Shown in pieces: positions 843 through 27,030 of a stretch of 64,000 bases of DNA (position 1 is the stretch's first letter; each line of letters opens with the position of its first letter). Below the pieces are notes generated by a model, which saw only the letters and a list, made by a program, of their open reading frames with translations, did no database searches and had not been told where the DNA came from. The position numbers were made by a program, and so were the translations under genes. The stretch is from Candidatus Latescibacterota bacterium (GTDB lineage Bacteria; Latescibacterota; UBA2968), in assembly GCA_965214925.1 (NCBI GenBank), contig OZ244028.1, forward strand, positions 3,592,205 through 3,656,204, in the 5' to 3' direction.

Positions 843-945
843 CGCGGATTGTCGCGGATGAAAGGATTGCGCGGATTAAACCCATTCCCTCTGCACGACC
901 CGTAACGTCTAATCCGCGCCATCTGTGTCATCCCCCTAATCCGCG
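843..945. promoter_or_regulatory. Cluster of five 8-bp CGCGGATT/AATCCGCG motifs, three forward and two inverted
   Basis: Forward copies at 843-850, 853-860 and 870-877; inverted copies at 911-918 and 938-945. The cluster lies in the upstream region of the GxxExxY gene and the 3' end of the methyltransferase gene. Related copies occur at 25887-25912. Confidence 0.3.
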
Positions 946-3900
946 ATCCACCGCAGTAATTTCTTCCTCCGTCAGCCTGTATAGCCCATAGACTAATCGA
1001 TCTATCTCCCCTTCCTGCTCCCCGGTGTCCACCGCCGGGTCGTCCGCTTTAGCTTGCAGGATGCGCTCCACCAAGCGAATGAACGGACGCTGCTTTTCGG
1101 CAGGGATTCCAGGGATGGGGATGACTTCAACCGAACTGCGAATCCATCGAGTTACTCCCATTCCAGAATTGAGTGCCGTGTTCCCCATAAACCAAGTGAT
1201 CAGGCGGGAGTTGAGTATCGCGCATAGATACTTAATTGCTTGCCCAGACATTATAAAGCAAGTGTTCACGCAGAACATTTCACCTTCGTTATAGGCAAAT
1301 CGCCCTTGCTCTGTCAGATCCATCCATACCAGCTTTTCTTTGGCAAATTCGTCGTGGTAGGCGCAGTTGCGGAGATTGTAAGGTGTCTTGCCTTTGTCCT
1401 GCCGCTTTTCCAGTCTCTGATAGAACGTGTCCAGATGGGCTTTGATGGCCGGGTAATCGTCAATGTTGATAGCGGGAACATCGCCGTATCCGCTGTGCGT
1501 ATCAATCAGCCATAACCCCGCCCATTGTGCTTGATACTGCTGAATATCCCGGCCGCGTAGCACAGGCTTGATGATCTCCGCGGAGTTCGGGTCTTTGGTA
1601 ACAAGTACCTGCCGGGTCGCATTGTCTATTATAAAAGCATTGTTGTAGCCGGTCTTGATACCCATGTTAATGGACACATCCCATTCTTTTAGCGGCGTCC
1701 CAATGGCCTCTATCTTGTCCATCACGCTCTGTTCGGTAGCCGAAAGCGCACTCCACGGCTTTTCACCTTGTGGTCGGAACTGTCCCCAAAGACTCGCGTC
1801 GGGCGGGAAGGTTTTATCGGTCAGACGGTCCATATCCACGGCCTTGCCGGTCTCGCCACTTTTGCCGTGACGCACGATCAGGATGTTCGTATCCACAATG
1901 GCGTTTTCAAAAACGTCCTTGCCCATTTCCAGCAGTTGCAGCGGCGTATGTTTCTCCGCGAAATAGCGGCGCGTCGCCTTGCCGTATTCCGCCTTTAGCC
2001 AACTGTTGGACGTGATGTAAGACAGCAGGCCGTGCTGCGGCTTCAGCAGTTGGCAACCTTTCTCGTAGAAAAGCTGGTAAACGTCGCCGGTGCGGGCGAA
2101 GGTGGCGTAGCCAGCGTCTTTGTAGAGCCGCCCCAATTCGCCGCGGTTTTTCTGCAACTGGATATACGGCGGATTGCCAATCACCACATCGAAGCCATCG
2201 GCGATGCCAAACATATACTCAGCGTCGAACCAATCCGCCTTTGCGTTCTGATCGTAGGGATCCCAATGCGCGATTTTATTGGCGTCGTCCTCGGGCAGGC
2301 CGGCCGCGTTCAATTCCCTTGCCAATGCCTCGCGCAACCTTTTGTCCTCGTTCTTGCACGCCAGCTTTTGTGGTCGCGTGGTCGCGTGAAAATGCCGCTC
2401 GCGGTTTTCCGCCAGTCTCGTTTTCAGGGTCTCGATCTGTTGACGGAACAAGTCCAGTTGATCCGCATCTTCGAGCTTCAGTAGCGTATTGGCCGCCACA
2501 AAGCGCGTCTCCAGATTGGGCAGCGGCTTGATGCCGAAGTTATCCGCGGCCTCATCTGCTTCCTGCTCAATGGCTAGCGAAATGAAGAAGCGCAACTTGG
2601 CGATCTGACAGGCGATGGACTGAATATCGACACCGAAGATGCTGTTTTGGATCAGGTACAGCTTGCGCCCGAAATCCGAGTCGCGGTAGTGCTCAAAGGT
2701 CTCGCTGATCTCTTTGAGTTCGGCATCGCGATCTTCCCAATCGTCCGTTTCGTACGCCGACCTCGTCCGTTCCATCGCGAGCTCTTTTTGCAACTGCTCC
2801 CAGCGGCTGTTGTCGGGGTCGAGCCGTTTTAAGGCCAAGGTCAGTTTGTGCAACACGCCCATGGGAAACGCGCCAGAACCGACCGCCGGGTCGAGCACCT
2901 TGATCTCGGAAATCGTCCGCATAATCCCTGCCGCTTCGTCTGCCTCAAAAAGTTCATGGGCATCGTTGAACTCATCCTCATAATCCAACAAATAGCGCAG
3001 CCGTTCCTGCCAGAAATCGCGGTCGCCATCATCGGGTCGCGCTTTTTCCGTCAAAAACGCCACCAACGCCTCATCCACCATGTAGTCCACTACGGCGCGG
3101 GGCGTGTAGTAGGAGCCGGTCTGCTTGCGGGCGGTGTCGCGGGTCTCTGGGTTGTAGGCTGCCAACAGGTTCTCAAACACTTTGCCGAGAAGCTCCGGGT
3201 CGAGCGCGACTTCCTGTTCGGCGGGCGTGTTTTCCTCCACCGTGAACTTGTAGCGATTGAATAGGGTGATCAGCCCGTCGGCGCACCCTGAGCCTGCCGA
3301 AGCGTCGTCAAAGAACAGGCGGTTGGGAATGCTCAATTTGTGGTAATGGACGTCGGAAAAGCAGTCAATGCGCCAACCGCCATACGTTGTAGCCTCCTCG
3401 CTGTCCAAGCAGTCGAATAGCCCGCCGTTGATAAAGGGCGTTTGGCAAAACAAGGCCAAGAGCGCGTCCGGGTCGCGCATTTCTTGCTTGTAGCGATAGC
3501 GGGAGAAATCGCGGTGGGTGGCGTTTTTCACTTGGCTAAAACCGCGCGTGTCGATTTCGGTGTTGAGAGTAGCGAAAAACAGGTTTTGCAACACCGCGCG
3601 ATAATAGGAGTCGCCACCGTCGCGGTCATAGTTTTTCAGCAGAGGGCGGATTTGCGCCTCAATGAACAGGGCGTCGGCGATGAGTCCTTTTTCCTTGATG
3701 AACCAGACGAATAGCAGGCGGGTGATGAGACGGATGACGTGTTCTTCGGCGTGCAGAGTTCGCGCTTCGCTGGTCGGGAACCGCGCCTCGTTGACCGCGC
3801 GCTCAAACCATTCGTACAAGTCTCGGTAGAACCGCCGGTTCAGTTCCTCGGTGTCCAAGGCGTCCAGCCAAGCGTCTAACAGGCCGTCAAAATTGTGCGC

Positions 3901-4602
3901 TCTGTCGTGCTTGCTCATCCACCCCAAGCGGTCGTCCAACGCCAAGTCCGCCAGTATGTCGAGATGGGCGCGGTGTGGATCGGCCGGGTCGATCTCCCGT
4001 ATCAGCGACACACTGCCCAGCACATCGCGCTCGGGATCGCGCCGATGCGGGCGGCGGTGAACAAAGGACAGGGAGAGGAGGCTGTCAGCGGTCTTGAACA
4101 GCACCACGGCCGGCATTGGAAATCGCTTGTTGATCTCGCGGGTAAATGCGGCGTATTGGCCGCGGGGGTAGGACGTGCCCTTTAGCTCCACAGCGGCAAA
4201 GAGGAAGCTACGCGCGTTGCCTGTGTCAAAATCGCCCGTGTTGAACAGCGCACTTGAACTGCTGGCGCAGTTGTACCCCGGTGGCGCGGGCGCGACTTCA
4301 TCATCGGTCAACTGAAAAATGAGCCGCACGGATTGGGCGTTCTCGCGGAATGCCTGCTCGGTGTGAACTGCTGGCGCAGTTGTACCCCGGTGGGTGTTTT
4401 CATTGGACGCTGGGAATTGCTCGATAAAGTCATCCGCGCTTCCCGAAAGTGCCACCGTGCGCTCGCTCTGATAGCCGAGGACTTTGAGCAGGGCTTTGCT
4501 ATCCGACAAAAAATCCCCGTGAACTGCTGGCGCAGTTGTACCCCGGTGGGGCACAGCCGCCAAAGCAGACCGAATGCGCGCTATGAGATCGCCATTGCTC
4601 AT
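928..4602 (-). CDS. Type IIG/IIL-like restriction-modification fusion protein (MmeI/PglX-like): N-terminal PD-(D/E)xK nuclease, central N6-adenine methyltransferase, C-terminal target-recognition region
   Basis: Methyltransferase motif I LDPAVGSGAFP and motif IV VIGNPPYIQ. N-terminal GDFDTGN...FAAVELK gives a D...ExK nuclease motif. Total ~1,220 aa. The probable start MSNGDL at 4602 has an AAGGA ribosome-binding site and overlaps the upstream helicase stop as ATGA. Confidence 0.8.
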   Translation of the reverse strand: MSNGDLIARIRSALAAVPHRGTTAPAVHGDFLSDSKALLKVLGYQSERTVALSGSADDFIEQFPASNENTHRGTTAPAVHTEQAFRENAQSVRLIFQLTDDEVAPAPPGYNCASSSSALFNTGDFDTGNARSFLFAAVELKGTSYPRGQYAAFTREINKRFPMPAVVLFKTADSLLSLSFVHRRPHRRDPERDVLGSVSLIREIDPADPHRAHLDILADLALDDRLGWMSKHDRAHNFDGLLDAWLDALDTEELNRRFYRDLYEWFERAVNEARFPTSEARTLHAEEHVIRLITRLLFVWFIKEKGLIADALFIEAQIRPLLKNYDRDGGDSYYRAVLQNLFFATLNTEIDTRGFSQVKNATHRDFSRYRYKQEMRDPDALLALFCQTPFINGGLFDCLDSEEATTYGGWRIDCFSDVHYHKLSIPNRLFFDDASAGSGCADGLITLFNRYKFTVEENTPAEQEVALDPELLGKVFENLLAAYNPETRDTARKQTGSYYTPRAVVDYMVDEALVAFLTEKARPDDGDRDFWQERLRYLLDYEDEFNDAHELFEADEAAGIMRTISEIKVLDPAVGSGAFPMGVLHKLTLALKRLDPDNSRWEQLQKELAMERTRSAYETDDWEDRDAELKEISETFEHYRDSDFGRKLYLIQNSIFGVDIQSIACQIAKLRFFISLAIEQEADEAADNFGIKPLPNLETRFVAANTLLKLEDADQLDLFRQQIETLKTRLAENRERHFHATTRPQKLACKNEDKRLREALARELNAAGLPEDDANKIAHWDPYDQNAKADWFDAEYMFGIADGFDVVIGNPPYIQLQKNRGELGRLYKDAGYATFARTGDVYQLFYEKGCQLLKPQHGLLSYITSNSWLKAEYGKATRRYFAEKHTPLQLLEMGKDVFENAIVDTNILIVRHGKSGETGKAVDMDRLTDKTFPPDASLWGQFRPQGEKPWSALSATEQSVMDKIEAIGTPLKEWDVSINMGIKTGYNNAFIIDNATRQVLVTKDPNSAEIIKPVLRGRDIQQYQAQWAGLWLIDTHSGYGDVPAINIDDYPAIKAHLDTFYQRLEKRQDKGKTPYNLRNCAYHDEFAKEKLVWMDLTEQGRFAYNEGEMFCVNTCFIMSGQAIKYLCAILNSRLITWFMGNTALNSGMGVTRWIRSSVEVIPIPGIPAEKQRPFIRLVERILQAKADDPAVDTGEQEGEIDRLVYGLYRLTEEEITAVDRGLGG
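4255..4549. repeat. Three direct copies of a 30-bp palindromic element TGAACTGCTGGCGCAGTTGTACCCCGGTGG inside the 5' coding region of the methyltransferase gene
   Basis: Copies at 4255-4284, 4364-4393 and 4520-4549. The core AACTGC-TGGC-GCAGTT is a perfect 6-bp inverted repeat. Copies 2 and 3 are translated as HRGTTAPAVH. A fourth copy lies at 26959-26984. Confidence 0.8.
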
Positions 4603-5555
4603 GTCTGATCCTTTGCAATAATCAGCCATGTTACCAATTCAAAATCAACATGGCTCGGTTTTGTGGATTTAGCCGGCAGTCTGAAATCGCGCGAGCCGCG
4701 AATGCCCAATTGTCGGATTTGCCTTGCGGTGTTCGCCCCGCTGATGTGGGCAATGACCGCGTCCAACAATTTGTTGTAACGCGCCATGTCCCGGCCGTTT
4801 TGGGTATCGCTGTCAAACTGATCGCAAAGTCTTTGAAGCGGTTCGGTCTTGCCAACAGCCGCGGATTCAAACAACTCGAGCACCTGTCTGGCATTGGCAC
4901 AACCGTAGCGAATATCGCCTGTCTGCCGTGCCGGCACAGGCAGGCCGCTGTCGCGGATGTACACGGCATAGTACGGATGAATTGGGCTGGCGGATTTTTC
5001 CCGCTTGTCCGCGCCGGCATTGCGCTGGCGCAAAAAAAATATCGCGCCCGAGCGTGCGATGTCGCCCTTCCCGTCGGTTACGGCGTATGATCCGTTGGGC
5101 GTTGCTTCCAGTTCCGCCTTGTTTTTCTTCAAATACCGCAACAACTGGGCAAAAAAGTAATCGAGCGTAAAGTCGCTCATAACGACGCCGTCGGACAACT
5201 CGTCCAAGTCCAGAACCTCTTCGCGCATTTTCTTTAATTGCTCGTCGCGGAAGTTAAGCTCCATCTGAATCTGGTCAGCCGGGTCTTCGTTCAACGGATC
5301 GTCGTCGCCGCTACCCGCCGCGTCCGCCAAAGCCATGCGCGCTTCAACGCGGTTTCGCAGGCGCAAATAGACGTCCATGTCCCGCGTGGGCCAGTAGTTG
5401 ATCATTTGCACCGATGGGTTGCGACTGCCAATGCGGTCAACGCGCCCGAAACGCTGGATGATACGCACCGGATTCCAGTGGATGTCGTAGTTGAGCACGG
5501 TGTCGCAATCTTGCAGGTTCTGTCCCTCCGAAATGCAATCGGTGGCAATCAGCAA
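4599..5555 (-). CDS. SNF2-family helicase, C-terminal (helicase C) fragment; the downstream half of a frameshifted PLD-SNF2 gene
   Basis: LIATDCISEGQNLQDCDTVLNYDIHWNP...QRFGRVDRIG matches SNF2 motifs V and VI. The frame is open upstream of the annotated Met (..ATDIDGEIDLLIATD) and is +1 relative to the upstream ORF. Confidence 0.7.
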   Translation of the reverse strand: MLIATDCISEGQNLQDCDTVLNYDIHWNPVRIIQRFGRVDRIGSRNPSVQMINYWPTRDMDVYLRLRNRVEARMALADAAGSGDDDPLNEDPADQIQMELNFRDEQLKKMREEVLDLDELSDGVVMSDFTLDYFFAQLLRYLKKNKAELEATPNGSYAVTDGKGDIARSGAIFFLRQRNAGADKREKSASPIHPYYAVYIRDSGLPVPARQTGDIRYGCANARQVLELFESAAVGKTEPLQRLCDQFDSDTQNGRDMARYNKLLDAVIAHISGANTARQIRQLGIRGSRDFRLPAKSTKPSHVDFELVTWLIIAKDQT

Positions 5556-5556
5556 A

Positions 5557-7887
5557 TCAATTTCGCCATCTATGTCGGTCGCGGGCGCGCCCGCGCGCCC
5601 GCGGCGCGAAGTTGGTCAAGATCGCGTTGAAATTATTGTCGCCAAACGCGGTGCGCGTGGCGTCGCCACAGACCATCGCCATGTGTATCTCGAGTTCGTT
5701 TGCCAAATCCGCCAAGTTCTCGTAAAGGTATGCCGCCGTGTCCTTGAATGTGGTGAACACCAGCATTTTGCGGTTGGTCTTGCCATCCTCGTCCATCGTC
5801 GGATTTCGCGCCTTGTCCCGAATGCGCGCCTTAATCGCTTCGAGCTTGCCGTCCCGCTCGGGCGTGATCTCGGCGACCTTTTTCCACACCGCGGTCAGAA
5901 CTTTTTTGTCGTTGAGCAAATCCTTCTTCCAGCGGGGCAAATCCAACTCGCGCAGGTGATAGGGCGTGCGCGCCCGATTGATCAGAAACTCCTCGTCGTC
6001 CTCGTCGTCATTCGGGAGGATGTCGGCTTGTTCGTCCAACAGCAGGTTTTGCCCATAGCGGTCTATCTTTTTTAACAGATCGTCAATTTTGCCGACCGTG
6101 CGCCCGAGGGTTTCCGTCAGCGCGTGCGCGGAACTCTCCAAGCGTTTGAGAAAGTTCGTCCGCATCATGCCGATGAGGAATCGCTCGCGGTCCTCCTGAT
6201 TGAACCGCAGTTGCTTTTTTTCATTCGCCAACCGCTTTTTTGCCTCTTCGCCGGTGACATAGCCAGATGGCCGGTAAATGGACAGGGCGAATTGCCCGAT
6301 TTGCTCGGACAAATCCCGATAGGAAAGTTCGCGCGTGACGTCGGTCAGCGGATAGCCATTTTCCGGCGGCAACTGCGTGGGAAAATCGCCGATGCGGTGC
6401 ATTTCCTCGGCATAGAACGTCTCGATCTGTCGCCGCGAGCGCGCGATGGAAACGCCGCCCAACAACAACAAAAAATCAGCCCCCAGCGAATCCAACAACT
6501 CGCCCTTGTCTTTTTTTTTCGCGTTGGACTCCCAGGCCTTGAACTCCTTTTGCGCCTGTCCGAGCAAGGTGCCGATATGTCCAATGCCCAGACTTTCCCG
6601 GAACACATCCTCGCGCTTTTCGGTCATCAGATAAATCTGATTGCGGAGGTCGATGAGCGAGGTATTGACCGGCGTCGCGGAAAGCATCAGCACCTTGGTT
6701 TGCGTGCCTTCTTTGATCACTTCCTCCAACAGCCGCGAGTAGCGGCTGTGGCGAATTTTGCCATCATCGTCCAATCGGGGCTTGGTATCATTGCGGAAGT
6801 TGTGCGATTCGTCAATGACCACCACATCGAGATTGCGCCAGTTGAAATTTGCCAGATCAATATCGCCGGCTCGTCCCCTGCTGCGAGACAAGTCCGTGTG
6901 CGACAACAACGTGTAGCCAAAGCGATCCGCGGCAAAAGGATTGTGGGCATGGGCGTTATACACCGGATATAGCGCCCAGTTTTCGCGCAGCTTTTTGGGG
7001 CACAAGACCAGCACGCGCTCGTTTCGCAACTCAAAGAACTTGATCACCGCCAACGCCGTGTAGGTCTTTCCCAAGCCCACGCTGTCGGCCAAGATGCAGC
7101 CGTTGTGCCGCAACAAACGGGCGATCGCGCTTTTGGCGCCGTCTTTCTGAAAGCCGTACAGCGCGTTCCAAATCCGCGTGTCGTACAGGTGCGTATCCTC
7201 GAGTTGGCTTTCGCCCTTTTGTCTGTCTTCTATATCTGCCCGAAACAACTCGTAGAGCGTTTTGTAATAGATAAATTCCGGCGCGCAGTCTTTGCCGATT
7301 CGCGCCAGCGCGGCCAACACCTCCTTTTTGACATCCACAGTCAACGCGCGGTCTGCCCACAGGTCGTCAAACCACGCGCGCAGTTCCGCGCAGATTTCCG
7401 CGTCGCAGGTCGCCAGGTTGATTTCCATATTTGCGCGCGTCCCCCCGCCCAAGCCGCTGCGCGTGAAGTTGGAACTGCCGACCACCGCTGCGCCGCGGTT
7501 GGGCGATTCCGCGAGATACATCTTGCCATGCAGAAAATTGGATTTGCCGACAGAGCGGATTTTGACCCCTTTGCCGCGCACCCATGCGGCGCATTGCCGC
7601 GCCACATATTTCTGCTGCAACGCGCGATTCGGCGAGAGTCTGCCTTCGGTCAGGTCAAAAAATTTCCGCGCGCGCTCGCCGGGGTCCAACTCGCCAACCG
7701 ATGCCGGATCTCCAAAGAGAAACCGCACATCCCCGACGCGGGCGAGCGCGTCCTTCAGCAATTCATAGCCGTAAATGGTAAAATACGCGGAAACCAGCCT
7801 GAATACCTTCGCGGAGGGCAAATGTCCGCGCAGATAATCCGCGACCCGCTCGCGGCGATTGTCCAGAATGTGTTCGTATTTTTGCAT
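5557..7887 (-). CDS. PLD-family nuclease domain fused to an SNF2 helicase N-terminal ATPase domain; the upstream half of the frameshifted gene
   Basis: HKD motif HGKMYL...GSSNFT. Walker A GLGKTYT, DEAH-like VVIDESHNFRN and motif III LMLSATPV. Start MQKYEHIL at 7887 follows a GGGGGAG ribosome-binding site. The ORF terminates inside the GC repeat at 5581-5608. Confidence 0.75.
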   Translation of the reverse strand: MQKYEHILDNRRERVADYLRGHLPSAKVFRLVSAYFTIYGYELLKDALARVGDVRFLFGDPASVGELDPGERARKFFDLTEGRLSPNRALQQKYVARQCAAWVRGKGVKIRSVGKSNFLHGKMYLAESPNRGAAVVGSSNFTRSGLGGGTRANMEINLATCDAEICAELRAWFDDLWADRALTVDVKKEVLAALARIGKDCAPEFIYYKTLYELFRADIEDRQKGESQLEDTHLYDTRIWNALYGFQKDGAKSAIARLLRHNGCILADSVGLGKTYTALAVIKFFELRNERVLVLCPKKLRENWALYPVYNAHAHNPFAADRFGYTLLSHTDLSRSRGRAGDIDLANFNWRNLDVVVIDESHNFRNDTKPRLDDDGKIRHSRYSRLLEEVIKEGTQTKVLMLSATPVNTSLIDLRNQIYLMTEKREDVFRESLGIGHIGTLLGQAQKEFKAWESNAKKKDKGELLDSLGADFLLLLGGVSIARSRRQIETFYAEEMHRIGDFPTQLPPENGYPLTDVTRELSYRDLSEQIGQFALSIYRPSGYVTGEEAKKRLANEKKQLRFNQEDRERFLIGMMRTNFLKRLESSAHALTETLGRTVGKIDDLLKKIDRYGQNLLLDEQADILPNDDEDDEEFLINRARTPYHLRELDLPRWKKDLLNDKKVLTAVWKKVAEITPERDGKLEAIKARIRDKARNPTMDEDGKTNRKMLVFTTFKDTAAYLYENLADLANELEIHMAMVCGDATRTAFGDNNFNAILTNFAPRARGRARDRHRWRN

Positions 7888-7922
7888 CTTGCTCTCCCCC
7901 CTCAATGAGCAGTGTTTTGCCC

Positions 7923-25954: not shown

Positions 25955-26969
25955 GTCAACCCATTGGACAATCATTGCAAATCCCGTTTCGGGACGGGGC
26001 CGTGCAAAACGCATGGGGGAGTTGGTCGCGGATTTATTGCACAATCGAGGTGTAGGTGCTGACCTGATGGTGTCGGAGGCACCGGGCGAGTGTGAACGCC
26101 TCGCGCGAAAAGCATTGGCGCGGGGCGTGCGACAGGTTGCAGCGTGTGGCGGGGATGGCACAGTCCATGAAGTGGTCAACGGCCTCGCAAATTCAGACGC
26201 TGTTCTAGGGATTGTGCCCTGTGGCCGAGGGAATGATTTGGCGCGCGCATTGGATCTGCCCAAAGATGTGAACCGCGTGGTCAATACGCTGGTGCATGGC
26301 GCGGATCGCGCGATTGATCTGGGAAAAATGAACTGCTGTCGCAATGGGACACCGCTTGGCGATCGGTTTTTTGCGACCATTGCGAGTTTGGGATTCGACA
26401 CCGCAGTCGCACAAAGGACGCGGTCTCAGTCACCTCGCTCTCGAGCTTTGGGATGGGGCGGAACCGCATCTTATGGACTGGCGATTTTGCAAACGCTAGT
26501 GGGATATCGGTCTCCGATGGTGCGCTTGAGAGGAGATTTTGGTATTTTTGAAGGGCGTATTCTGCTGGTTGCAACGGCAAACGCGCCGTTTTATGGGAGC
26601 GGAATAAAAATTGCCCCTCACGCCGTGGTCGACGACGGAATGCTGGACGTGTGCATTGTGGCAGATGTGCCGCGCCGGACGGTTTTGCGACTCTTTTCAA
26701 GCGTGTATTCCGGCGCACACGTCGACCACCCTGCGGTGCATATCGCGCGAACCAAAACCTTGCAGATTGAAGCGGTGGATACCTGCGATAGCCGTTCAGC
26801 CGATGATCCCATGTGGGTATTTGCCGATGGCGAACCCATGTGTGAGATTCCTGCAAAAATCGAGGTCGTTCCCAACGCGCTGACTGTGAAAACAATGCGA
26901 ATGTACGACGCGAGACGCAAGAGGCGAGAGGCCCCCAAAACCCCTGCCTGTGCGCCGATGAACTGCTGA
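25955..26969 (+). CDS. Lipid kinase, diacylglycerol-kinase catalytic-domain family (YegS/BmrU-like)
   Basis: ANPVSGRG, ACGGDGTVHEV and GRGNDLAR blocks. The start could be 25917 or 25955. The stop TGA lies inside repeat copy 4. Confidence 0.75.
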
Positions 26970-26984
26970 CGCAGTTGTACCCCG
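26959..26984. repeat. Fourth copy of the 30-bp palindromic element (variant TGAACTGCTGACGCAGTTGTACCCCG)
   Basis: 24/25 identity to the core of the copies at 4255-4549. The G->A variant creates the TGA stop of the lipid kinase gene. Confidence 0.75.
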
Positions 26985-27030
26985 CCGCGTCAATGCGTCA
27001 ATGCTTCTATTCATAAAAGGGAGGTTTGAG

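Follow-up and report, generated by a model that had tools for sequence, protein, structure and literature searches.

The window analyzed in this study is a stretch of 64 kb from contig OZ244028.1 of a Candidatus Latescibacterota bacterium. Near one end, its minus strand encodes a restriction-modification (RM) enzyme of type IIG, and the coding region of this gene contains three close copies of a palindromic 30-bp repeat, noticed in a preliminary description of the same DNA together with a fourth copy at the end of a lipid-kinase gene. The features concerned are listed in Table 1. We conclude that the three repeats in the RM gene are very probably sibling copies of a 28-nt non-autonomous mobile DNA element, which belongs to a family dispersed in Latescibacterota.

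The RM gene itself is intact. The minus-strand open reading frame (ORF) 928..4629 is uninterrupted across all three copies, in agreement with the preliminary description, and the motifs D..ELK, LDPAVGSGAFP, and GNPPY are present. A single polypeptide combines the N-terminal PD-(D/E)XK nuclease, the gamma-class N6-adenine methyltransferase, and the TaqI-like specificity domain, as is characteristic of the type IIG architecture. The likely start is the ATG codon at 4602, which overlaps the stop codon of the upstream gene (ATGA) and has the Shine-Dalgarno sequence AAGGA six bases upstream; the public record of an identical protein (P0001) contains the same 1224-aa call.

Exact matches of the 30-mer TGAACTGCTGGCGCAGTTGTACCCCGGTGG occupy the plus-strand positions 4255-4284, 4364-4393, and 4520-4549, the start-to-start spacings being 109 and 156 bp. 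The chance expectation for this 30-mer is 0.00 in dinucleotide-preserving shuffles, and it is still 0 when three mismatches are allowed. Between copies 2 and 3 the identity extends to 32 bp. In the core, AACTGC-TGGC-GCAGTT, two perfectly matched 6-bp arms of an inverted repeat enclose a loop of 4 nt. Thus the number of copies, their spacing, and the perfect inverted repeat are all as initially described, but the hairpin, whose folding had been suggested as a check, turned out to be weak (approximately -5 kcal/mol as DNA, z = -1.1 to -1.5), near the values of shuffled controls. The true inserted unit is 28 nt long, as the outer T and G of the 30-mer are a part of the common T[T]G target context and not of the unit.

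All three entries of the element are in the same orientation and fall within the first 350 bp of the RM gene. Copies 2 and 3 are read as HRGTTAPAVH, and copy 1, in another frame, as PPGYNCASSS, so that the earlier reading of the three frames is confirmed by translation. The translation contexts are AAVP-HRGTTAPAV-HGDF and NENT-HRGTTAPAV-HTEQ for the former two copies, and DDEVA-PAPPGYNCASS-SSALF, then DFD...FAAVELK, for the latter.

The tail of the RM copies, GGTG, occurs in no other copy among more than 130, nor in the metagenome collection described below, where a scan for this RM-specific subfamily produced 0 matches; the usual tail is GYTC. The combination of the TGGC loop and the GGTG tail is likewise common to the three RM copies and found in no other copy. 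Since this tail is shared by the three copies and seen nowhere else, they are probably siblings that arose recently and locally, either by descent of one copy from another or from a common master. In addition, the presence of three identical copies in one orientation within 300 bp, against one further copy in the rest of the 64-kb window, points to local amplification or to a single master that inserted repeatedly.

Insertions into a conserved domain and their junctions

The origin of the segments was analyzed by aligning the N-terminal 330 residues of the 60 best relatives (81-63% identity) with MAFFT. The three segments are present only in the window protein, and all of the 59 other aligned orthologues are gapped exactly at these places, with both flanks well aligned; the N-termini of the orthologues align upstream of copy 3. 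Because of these gaps with aligned flanks, the RM segments are lineage-specific insertions into a conserved domain rather than ancestral coding sequence.

At copy 2, the nucleotide alignment with the closest orthologous locus (L118, encoding the 81% identical protein P0002) shows a 27-bp gap; the gap at copy 1 measures 30 bp, made up of 27 bp and one extra codon in a length-variable stretch. The predicted empty site of copy 1, GCGCAAAGTGCG, matches the orthologue at 12 of 12 positions across the junction. For copy 2, the predicted empty site GAAAACACC-A-ACACCGAG is one base apart from GAAAACACC-A-AGACCGAG of the orthologue; the restored sequence, with 28 nt taken out and one A put back (GAAAACACCAACACCGAG), has a single third-position difference from it.

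In an AlphaFold2 model of residues 1-290, built from the alignment of 54 orthologues (predicted local distance difference test, pLDDT, 86.5; predicted template modeling score, pTM, 0.84), the inserts lie in predicted loops between secondary-structure elements of the N-terminal nuclease-like domain. The copy 3 segment is placed between helix 3-15 and helix 31-41 (pLDDT 59 for the block 21-30), and the copy 2 segment between helices 56-62/68-70 and 76-88 (pLDDT 65 for the block 71-80). The copy 1 segment falls into a long loop that connects strand 89-98 and helix 100-103 to the ELK-bearing strand 133-140 (block pLDDT 44). These three blocks are the only low-confidence stretches in the model. The sequence between and around them is conserved in the 59 orthologues and predicted to form confident helices and strands (block pLDDT 85-96), which contradicts the earlier suggestion that the N-terminal 150 or so residues may be a dispensable linker.

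Filled and empty versions of the same site were also found outside of the RM gene. A transposase gene of an insertion sequence (IS; DDE_5/DDE_Tnp_1) is represented by 338-aa and 347-aa forms in one 90%-identity cluster. The empty allele is ATGTC-A-ATCCCG and the filled one is ATGTC-[GAACGGGGTACAACTGCGCCAGCAGTTC]-ATCCCG, with identical flanking DNA, and in the protein VYV-N-PDQ becomes VYV-ERGTTAPAVH-PDQ. Further, a repeat of approximately 350 bp, similar to miniature inverted-repeat transposable elements (MITEs), has two insertion sites. At site 1, the unit is missing from 50 copies and present in seven. Site 2, covered by approximately 76 copies in the examined loci, is empty in six copies, while 67 have the exact core and two a core with a 1-nt loop deletion, the gap being exactly 27 bp. 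In some of the MITE-like copies site 1 is filled and site 2 is empty.

The resulting junction rule, in the orientation of the element, is that one T of 5'-T[T]G-3' is replaced by 5'-G AACTGC TNNN GCAGTT GTACCCC GNTN-3'; on the RM coding strand, an A of C[A]A is the replaced base. The target is not duplicated, one base is lost, and the element termini have only GAAC...GTTC in common. The net gain is 27 bp, or nine codons, and therefore the reading frame is always kept. The junction is consistent at all five directly compared sites, that is, in the IS gene, at sites 1 and 2 of the MITE-like repeat, and at sites 1 and 2 of the RM gene. Copies in tandem arrays (TTCGTTGAT, TTTTGTGCC) obey the same rule, and removal of the unit with return of the T yields a perfect array. 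A clean insertion 3' of CTTG or GTTC, as in IS91-like elements, was considered and ruled out, as the empty alleles keep one T too many.

The element family in Latescibacterota and its members in the window

The core AACTGCNNNNGCAGTTGTACCCC, with 19 fixed bases, was scanned against one genome per species in 185,579 species. Among the matches listed, at least 117 genome stretches contain the core, and 115 of these 117 come from 16 Latescibacterota species genomes (metagenome-assembled genomes). The other two listed are lone coding matches, in a folC-like gene of Lentisphaerales and in a Rhodoferax contig, which is about the chance level for 19 bases. The family is thus essentially confined to Latescibacterota. 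Copies with the exact core number at least 43 in one genome and at least 40 in another. More than 130 core copies, mostly non-coding, were found in other genomes, in line with the original impression of a dispersed element, resembling repetitive extragenic palindromes (REPs) or MITEs, inside a coding region.

No core matches were found in the IMG/VR viral contigs (0). In the JGI metagenomes, the real element is present in five contigs, all of them from MKWU01, a marine-sponge metagenome (PMC5649159). The other 11 metagenome stretches are chance matches, mostly copies of one A+T-rich locus, and several of them are in human-gut records. An Rfam scan of five element-bearing loci (E <= 1) revealed nothing that overlaps the hairpin. 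Its sole real match, unrelated to the element, is a lysine riboswitch (RF00168, 87.6 bits) of Latescibacterota at L028 6313-6503.

The family is described by the formula TG-AACTGC-TNNN-GCAGTT-GTACCCC-G. The consensus of 54 dereplicated copies outside the MITE-like repeat is GATG|AACTGC|T(G/A)NC|GCAGTT|GTACCCC|GYTCCG...ATTC, with loop positions 2-3 nearly random. A second subfamily has the stem AACTGGC/GCCAGTT, that is, a compensatory extra G:C pair, and the same GTACCCC tail; since the tail is retained with this altered stem, the hairpin is likely to matter.

The copies are found in unrelated settings, such as MITEs, arrays of 9-mers, a transposase gene, and a kinase gene's stop codon. Most copies not associated with the MITE-like repeat lie outside credible genes, and many closely precede the start of a gene in sense orientation, upstream of it. 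Hairpin units are interspersed, with a period of 35-36 bp, in tandem 8-9-mer arrays (TTCGTTGAT, TTCGTCTAT, TTTTGTGCC). Among 139 copies there is one inverted pair within 2.5 kb, and both of its arms are MITE copies. The arrays are situated at L132 1-260, L094 1650-1830, and L022 800-900, and the L132 array consists of three alternating unit types with a super-period of 107 bp. The MITE-like repeat, of approximately 350-400 bp, is found at L024 4570-4999 and in about 75 other copies in loci from OY282377, OZ251458, and OZ242010, and carries a bidirectional terminator-like hairpin, CCTACTTTTTTTTGCTGTTGAAAAAAAGTAGG.

With the TGGC loop, stop codons are absent in five of the six frames of the element. 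Outside the RM gene, three ORFs were found to carry the element in frame, and each reads it as RGTTAxAV(H/Q): the DDE transposase of the IS, a sigma-54 activator (within its linker), and one more ORF. The opposite coding outcome is observed at the fourth copy in the window, TGAACTGCTGaCGCAGTTGTACCCCG (26959-26984), whose TGAC loop terminates the DAGK_cat/YegS_C gene: as had been proposed, the TGA within the loop (26967-26969) serves as the stop of this ORF. It lies 26 residues past the last domain, and the last three codons of the ORF together with the stop are derived from the element. Because the tail and the loop of the fourth copy are unlike those of the RM copies, we assign it, by sequence, to another subfamily. 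Immediately after it, the short tandem repeat GCGTCAAT is present in two units, reminiscent of the short tandem arrays that accompany the element elsewhere in Latescibacterota.

These cases indicate that the gain of a 9-residue loop without a frameshift is a route open to genes. For annotation, identical short peptides (E/H)RGTTAxAVH in unrelated Latescibacterota proteins are to be treated as insertions of the element, not as homology.

Table 1. Features of the window considered in this study
Feature	Position	Strand	Details
Type IIG RM enzyme, Eco57I family, 1224 aa	928..4602	-	Pfam Eco57I, N6_Mtase, TaqI_C
Mini-element copy 1	4256..4283	+ (antisense to gene)	G-AACTGC-TGGC-GCAGTT-GTACCCC-GGTG; encodes PPGYNCASS(S), approximately residues 105-115 from Met at 4602
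Mini-element copy 2	4365..4392	+	28 nt identical to copy 1; encodes HRGTTAPAV, residues 71-79
Mini-element copy 3	4521..4548	+	28 nt identical to copy 1; encodes HRGTTAPAV, residues 19-27
Fourth family member, unit	26960..26987	+	G-AACTGC-TGAC-GCAGTT-GTACCCC-GCCG; 3' end of lipid-kinase gene
Diacylglycerol-kinase / YegS-type gene, 350 aa	25917..26969	+	Pfam DAGK_cat and YegS_C; domains stop at residue 324
Short tandem repeat, GCGTCAAT x2	26984-27010		Directly after the fourth copy
PLD and SNF2 helicase gene	4599-7905	-	Upstream neighbor of the RM gene; split into 782-aa and 318-aa ORFs
PD-(D/E)XK_3 protein, 158 aa	412-885	-	Directly downstream of the RM gene; Pfam E = 3e-36

In both orthologous loci, L118 and L119, the helicase gene that lies upstream of the RM gene consists of one uninterrupted ORF of 1066-1086 aa. 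The window version is broken near 5555-5570, within Helicase_C, by a frameshift that corresponds to a gap of 8 bp in the comparison with L118, which makes it either a pseudogene or a case of sequencing error in a GC-rich run. Given this frameshift, the RM locus may be under relaxed selection, which may have eased tolerance of the insertions. Downstream of the RM gene, L118 differs from the window, as it contains an acetyltransferase-domain protein and a small ORF.

Several RM orthologues are unusual in other respects. The orthologue P0095 (L119 6001-10317), from a TARA ocean metagenome, contains a Y1_Tnp (IS200-like) domain in the middle of the protein, at residues 615-690 (26.4 bits, the cut-off being 23). 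P0068, P0101, and P0105 are longer than typical orthologues by approximately 100-190 aa, with the alignment to the query covering only 57% of its length.

Interpretation and competing explanations

Two of the three RM copies encode the same HRGTTAPAVH peptide, as in an ordinary internal duplication of coding sequence, and the preliminary description allowed both for this possibility, if orthologues had the same peptides, and for a true start downstream of all copies, which would turn the repeats into a 5' untranslated region. There is next to no chance of either. The remaining copy is translated in another frame, exactly this DNA core recurs outside coding regions in 16 other genomes, and 59 of the 59 orthologues lack the segments while aligning on both sides of them, including the region upstream of copy 3. 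Moreover, the ATG at 4602 lies upstream of all three copies and is supported by the start/stop overlap and the Shine-Dalgarno sequence.

It was also suggested that deletions between the copies turn the RM system on and off or alter its specificity. Close short direct repeats can be deleted by RecA-independent slippage, and here three perfect direct repeats of 30-32 bp lie within 300 bp, with the deletion between copies 2 and 3 (156 bp) preserving the frame. Such a switch is nevertheless highly improbable. The deletion between copies 2 and 3 would remove helices 31-41 and 56-62, conserved in all orthologues, and the deletion between copies 1 and 2 would frameshift the whole RM polypeptide, including the methyltransferase; either event would therefore be a knock-out rather than a switch, and, being irreversible, could not provide phase variation. 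The protein database contains no deletion variant (the 90% cluster is a singleton, with 81% identity to the next relative), the specificity domain TaqI_C is located approximately 1000 residues away, at the other end of the protein, and copies of the element are scattered over many other, unrelated sites. The analysis is mostly deflationary as regards the RM gene, which is intact and gives no sign of switching.

More weight should be given to the possibility that the element is a host-functional hairpin kept by selection at many loci, for example, a site bound by a protein of the nucleoid, of regulation, or of recombination, or a hairpin involved in the stability or processing of RNA, although we consider this quite unlikely. 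The intragenic copies could then be by-products or could be functional, for instance, by attenuating the nuclease, and mobility would also be compatible with such a role. The stem and GTACCCC are near-invariant across the 16 species genomes, with loop positions 2-3 nearly random, and the many copies in the sense orientation just upstream of gene starts, as well as the frameshifted helicase partner with the possibly relaxed or changed selection on the RM locus, agree with a host function. On the other hand, the invariance is largely an ascertainment effect, as the scan required the exact core, and the hairpin is weak. The diversity of contexts, from the MITEs and 9-mer arrays to the transposase gene and the kinase stop, and the presence or absence of the element at identical sites are behavior of mobile DNA.

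A number of observations weigh against the mobile element as well. Its mobility is deduced from patterns of presence and absence, not from a mechanism, and we know of no transposition chemistry that yields a junction with one base lost, no target-site duplication, and almost no terminal inverted repeats. The near-invariant stem and tail with variable loops could reflect a host function selected in each copy. The empty sites in the RM gene were judged from an 81%-identical orthologue rather than from the same species, with site 3 assigned by inference, and the copy number in the source genome refers to the 64-kb window. Searches for the mobilizing enzyme were negative: tblastn with approximate sequences of IS608 TnpA and the Escherichia coli REP-associated tyrosine transposase (RAYT) as queries gave nothing below E = 0.8 in 0.94 Mb of element loci and the window, and clustering of 1828 ORFs from the element loci for a recurrent neighbor produced only DDE, IS4-like, Rpn-like, and spurious MITE-read ORFs, with no HUH enzyme among them.

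The ORFs that are present in multiple copies near the elements (L027, L092, and others) encode an IS4-like transposase and a putative recombination nuclease, which is Rpn/YhgA-like and has a tail of QGIE repeats, at five loci each.

The comparison of empty and filled sites leads us to prefer the 28-nt mobile element. It consists of a 6-bp hairpin with a variable loop, the invariant GTACCCC tail, and four more bases, and is probably moved in trans by an enzyme that recognizes both this tail and the single strand in its folded form. The intragenic copies that survive would be those that landed in tolerant loops and stop-free frames, and the effect on the RM enzyme is expected to be neutral or mildly attenuating. 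The repeats form a new family of an already recognized kind of tiny mobile repeat, and the most interesting part of it is the clean and odd junction. A phylum-wide invariant core that replaces one T in T[T]G, with no duplication, no second end, and a frame-neutral 27 bp, might even reflect an undescribed insertion mechanism, which we regard as unlikely. If it were true, there should be a dedicated enzyme, such as a single-strand hairpin integrase, or a reverse-transcription-coupled process, that "decorates" proteins with 9-residue loops, and the triple insertion into the nuclease domain might be selected, attenuating restriction while methylation stays.

The movement of the smallest bacterial repeats (REP- and SDR-like, where SDR stands for small dispersed repeat; less than 30 nt) is still unsolved, and the family described here offers clean material for its analysis: an invariant 19-nt core in at least 16 species, a reproducible replacement of T by 28 nt, and near-identical empty and filled IS alleles. 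These properties make the search for the enzyme directly testable in sponge-associated Latescibacterota genomes.

Comparison with known systems

Several classes of repeats were considered as possible homes for the element. It is not a repeat of CRISPR arrays, as there are at most three exact copies per 8 kb among the matches listed, and the tandem copies abut without spacers. The apparent CRISPR mini-array in the MITE-like repeat, with hairpins 69 bp apart, was also rejected: its "spacer" is constant, and the upstream hairpin is simply a second insertion site. The 28-nt unit also differs from classical MITEs, as it has no terminal inverted repeats beyond GAAC...GTTC and causes no duplication.

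Elements derived from IS200/IS605 and elements of the IS91 type recognize hairpins, produce no target-site duplication, and insert beside a short specific target. Their insertion is clean and 3' of the target, and it requires a transposase gene as well as two ends. The IS91 targets CTTG and GTTC are resembled by NTTG, the left flank of the element, and by its tail GYTC. In contrast to these elements, a base is lost here, the hairpin is single, and no HUH gene was found, with approximate queries, in the 0.94 Mb of loci and the window.

REPs are described as palindromic dispersed repeats of 20-40 bp, mostly extragenic, with a GTAG or CGTC tag (PMC3733652), and the GTAG-type REPs are also defined, in the account of Bertels and Rainey (2011), by RAYT transposases; the same paper is the reference for REPs and their inverted doublets, REPINs (PMC3116915). 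The element shares with them the short palindrome (a 28-nt unit with a 6-bp stem, 7 bp in the variant, and a 4-nt loop), many dispersed and mostly extragenic copies, a four-base tag abutting the stem, and the occurrence of copies inside genes. The tag, however, is GTAC in all copies (on the complement, GGGGTAC-AACTGC) rather than GTAG or CGTC, the clusters are direct tandem arrays rather than the inverted doublets of REPINs, no RAYT gene was found, with approximate queries, in the sampled DNA, and the stem is just 6-7 bp. We therefore do not file the element under REPs, because of the GTAC tag, the lack of inverted doublets, and the negative search for a Y1 gene in the sampled DNA. The preliminary description had called an element of this kind in a coding region unusual, but intragenic in-frame insertions of the REP type are already documented: in Opitutus terrae and Rickettsia conorii, intragenic REPs, sometimes two per gene, encode extra peptide segments, according to Di Nocera et al. 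(2013; PMC3733652).

The Rickettsia palindromic elements (RPE), as cited in the same source, are inserted in frame into protein-coding genes and tolerated by the host proteins; RPE-1 is approximately 100-150 bp long, and the family is limited to Rickettsia (PMC3733652). The likeness consists in a palindromic repeat that lies in frame inside genes whose products tolerate it. As opposed to RPE-1, the element is 28 nt long and keeps the frame through the fixed net gain of 27 bp.

The closest in behavior are the SDRs of heterocyst-forming cyanobacteria. Elhai and colleagues are said to have described them in 2008 as 21-27-nt hairpins nested in short tandem repeats and minitransposons, and they are reportedly present in or absent from otherwise identical sequence, with compensatory changes in the stem. 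To our knowledge, no enzyme that mobilizes SDRs has been found. The element has the same size range (less than approximately 30 nt), a compensated hairpin, filled and empty alleles, nesting in tandem repeats and minitransposons, precision of the site, and no mobilizer found. SDRs (Elhai et al. 2008, Genome Res 18:1484) are cited in PMC3116915, PMC4390886, and PMC2884548, and SDR5 is reported to insert between nucleotides 3 and 4 of HIP1 (PMC4390886). The element comes from another phylum and belongs to another sequence family, and homology to the cyanobacterial SDR1-8 is unlikely, because the hosts are Latescibacterota. It further differs from SDRs in that one target T is replaced, so that the insertion itself is not clean, in the 28-nt unit with the asymmetric invariant GTACCCC tail, and in the several in-frame insertions into protein-coding genes documented here.

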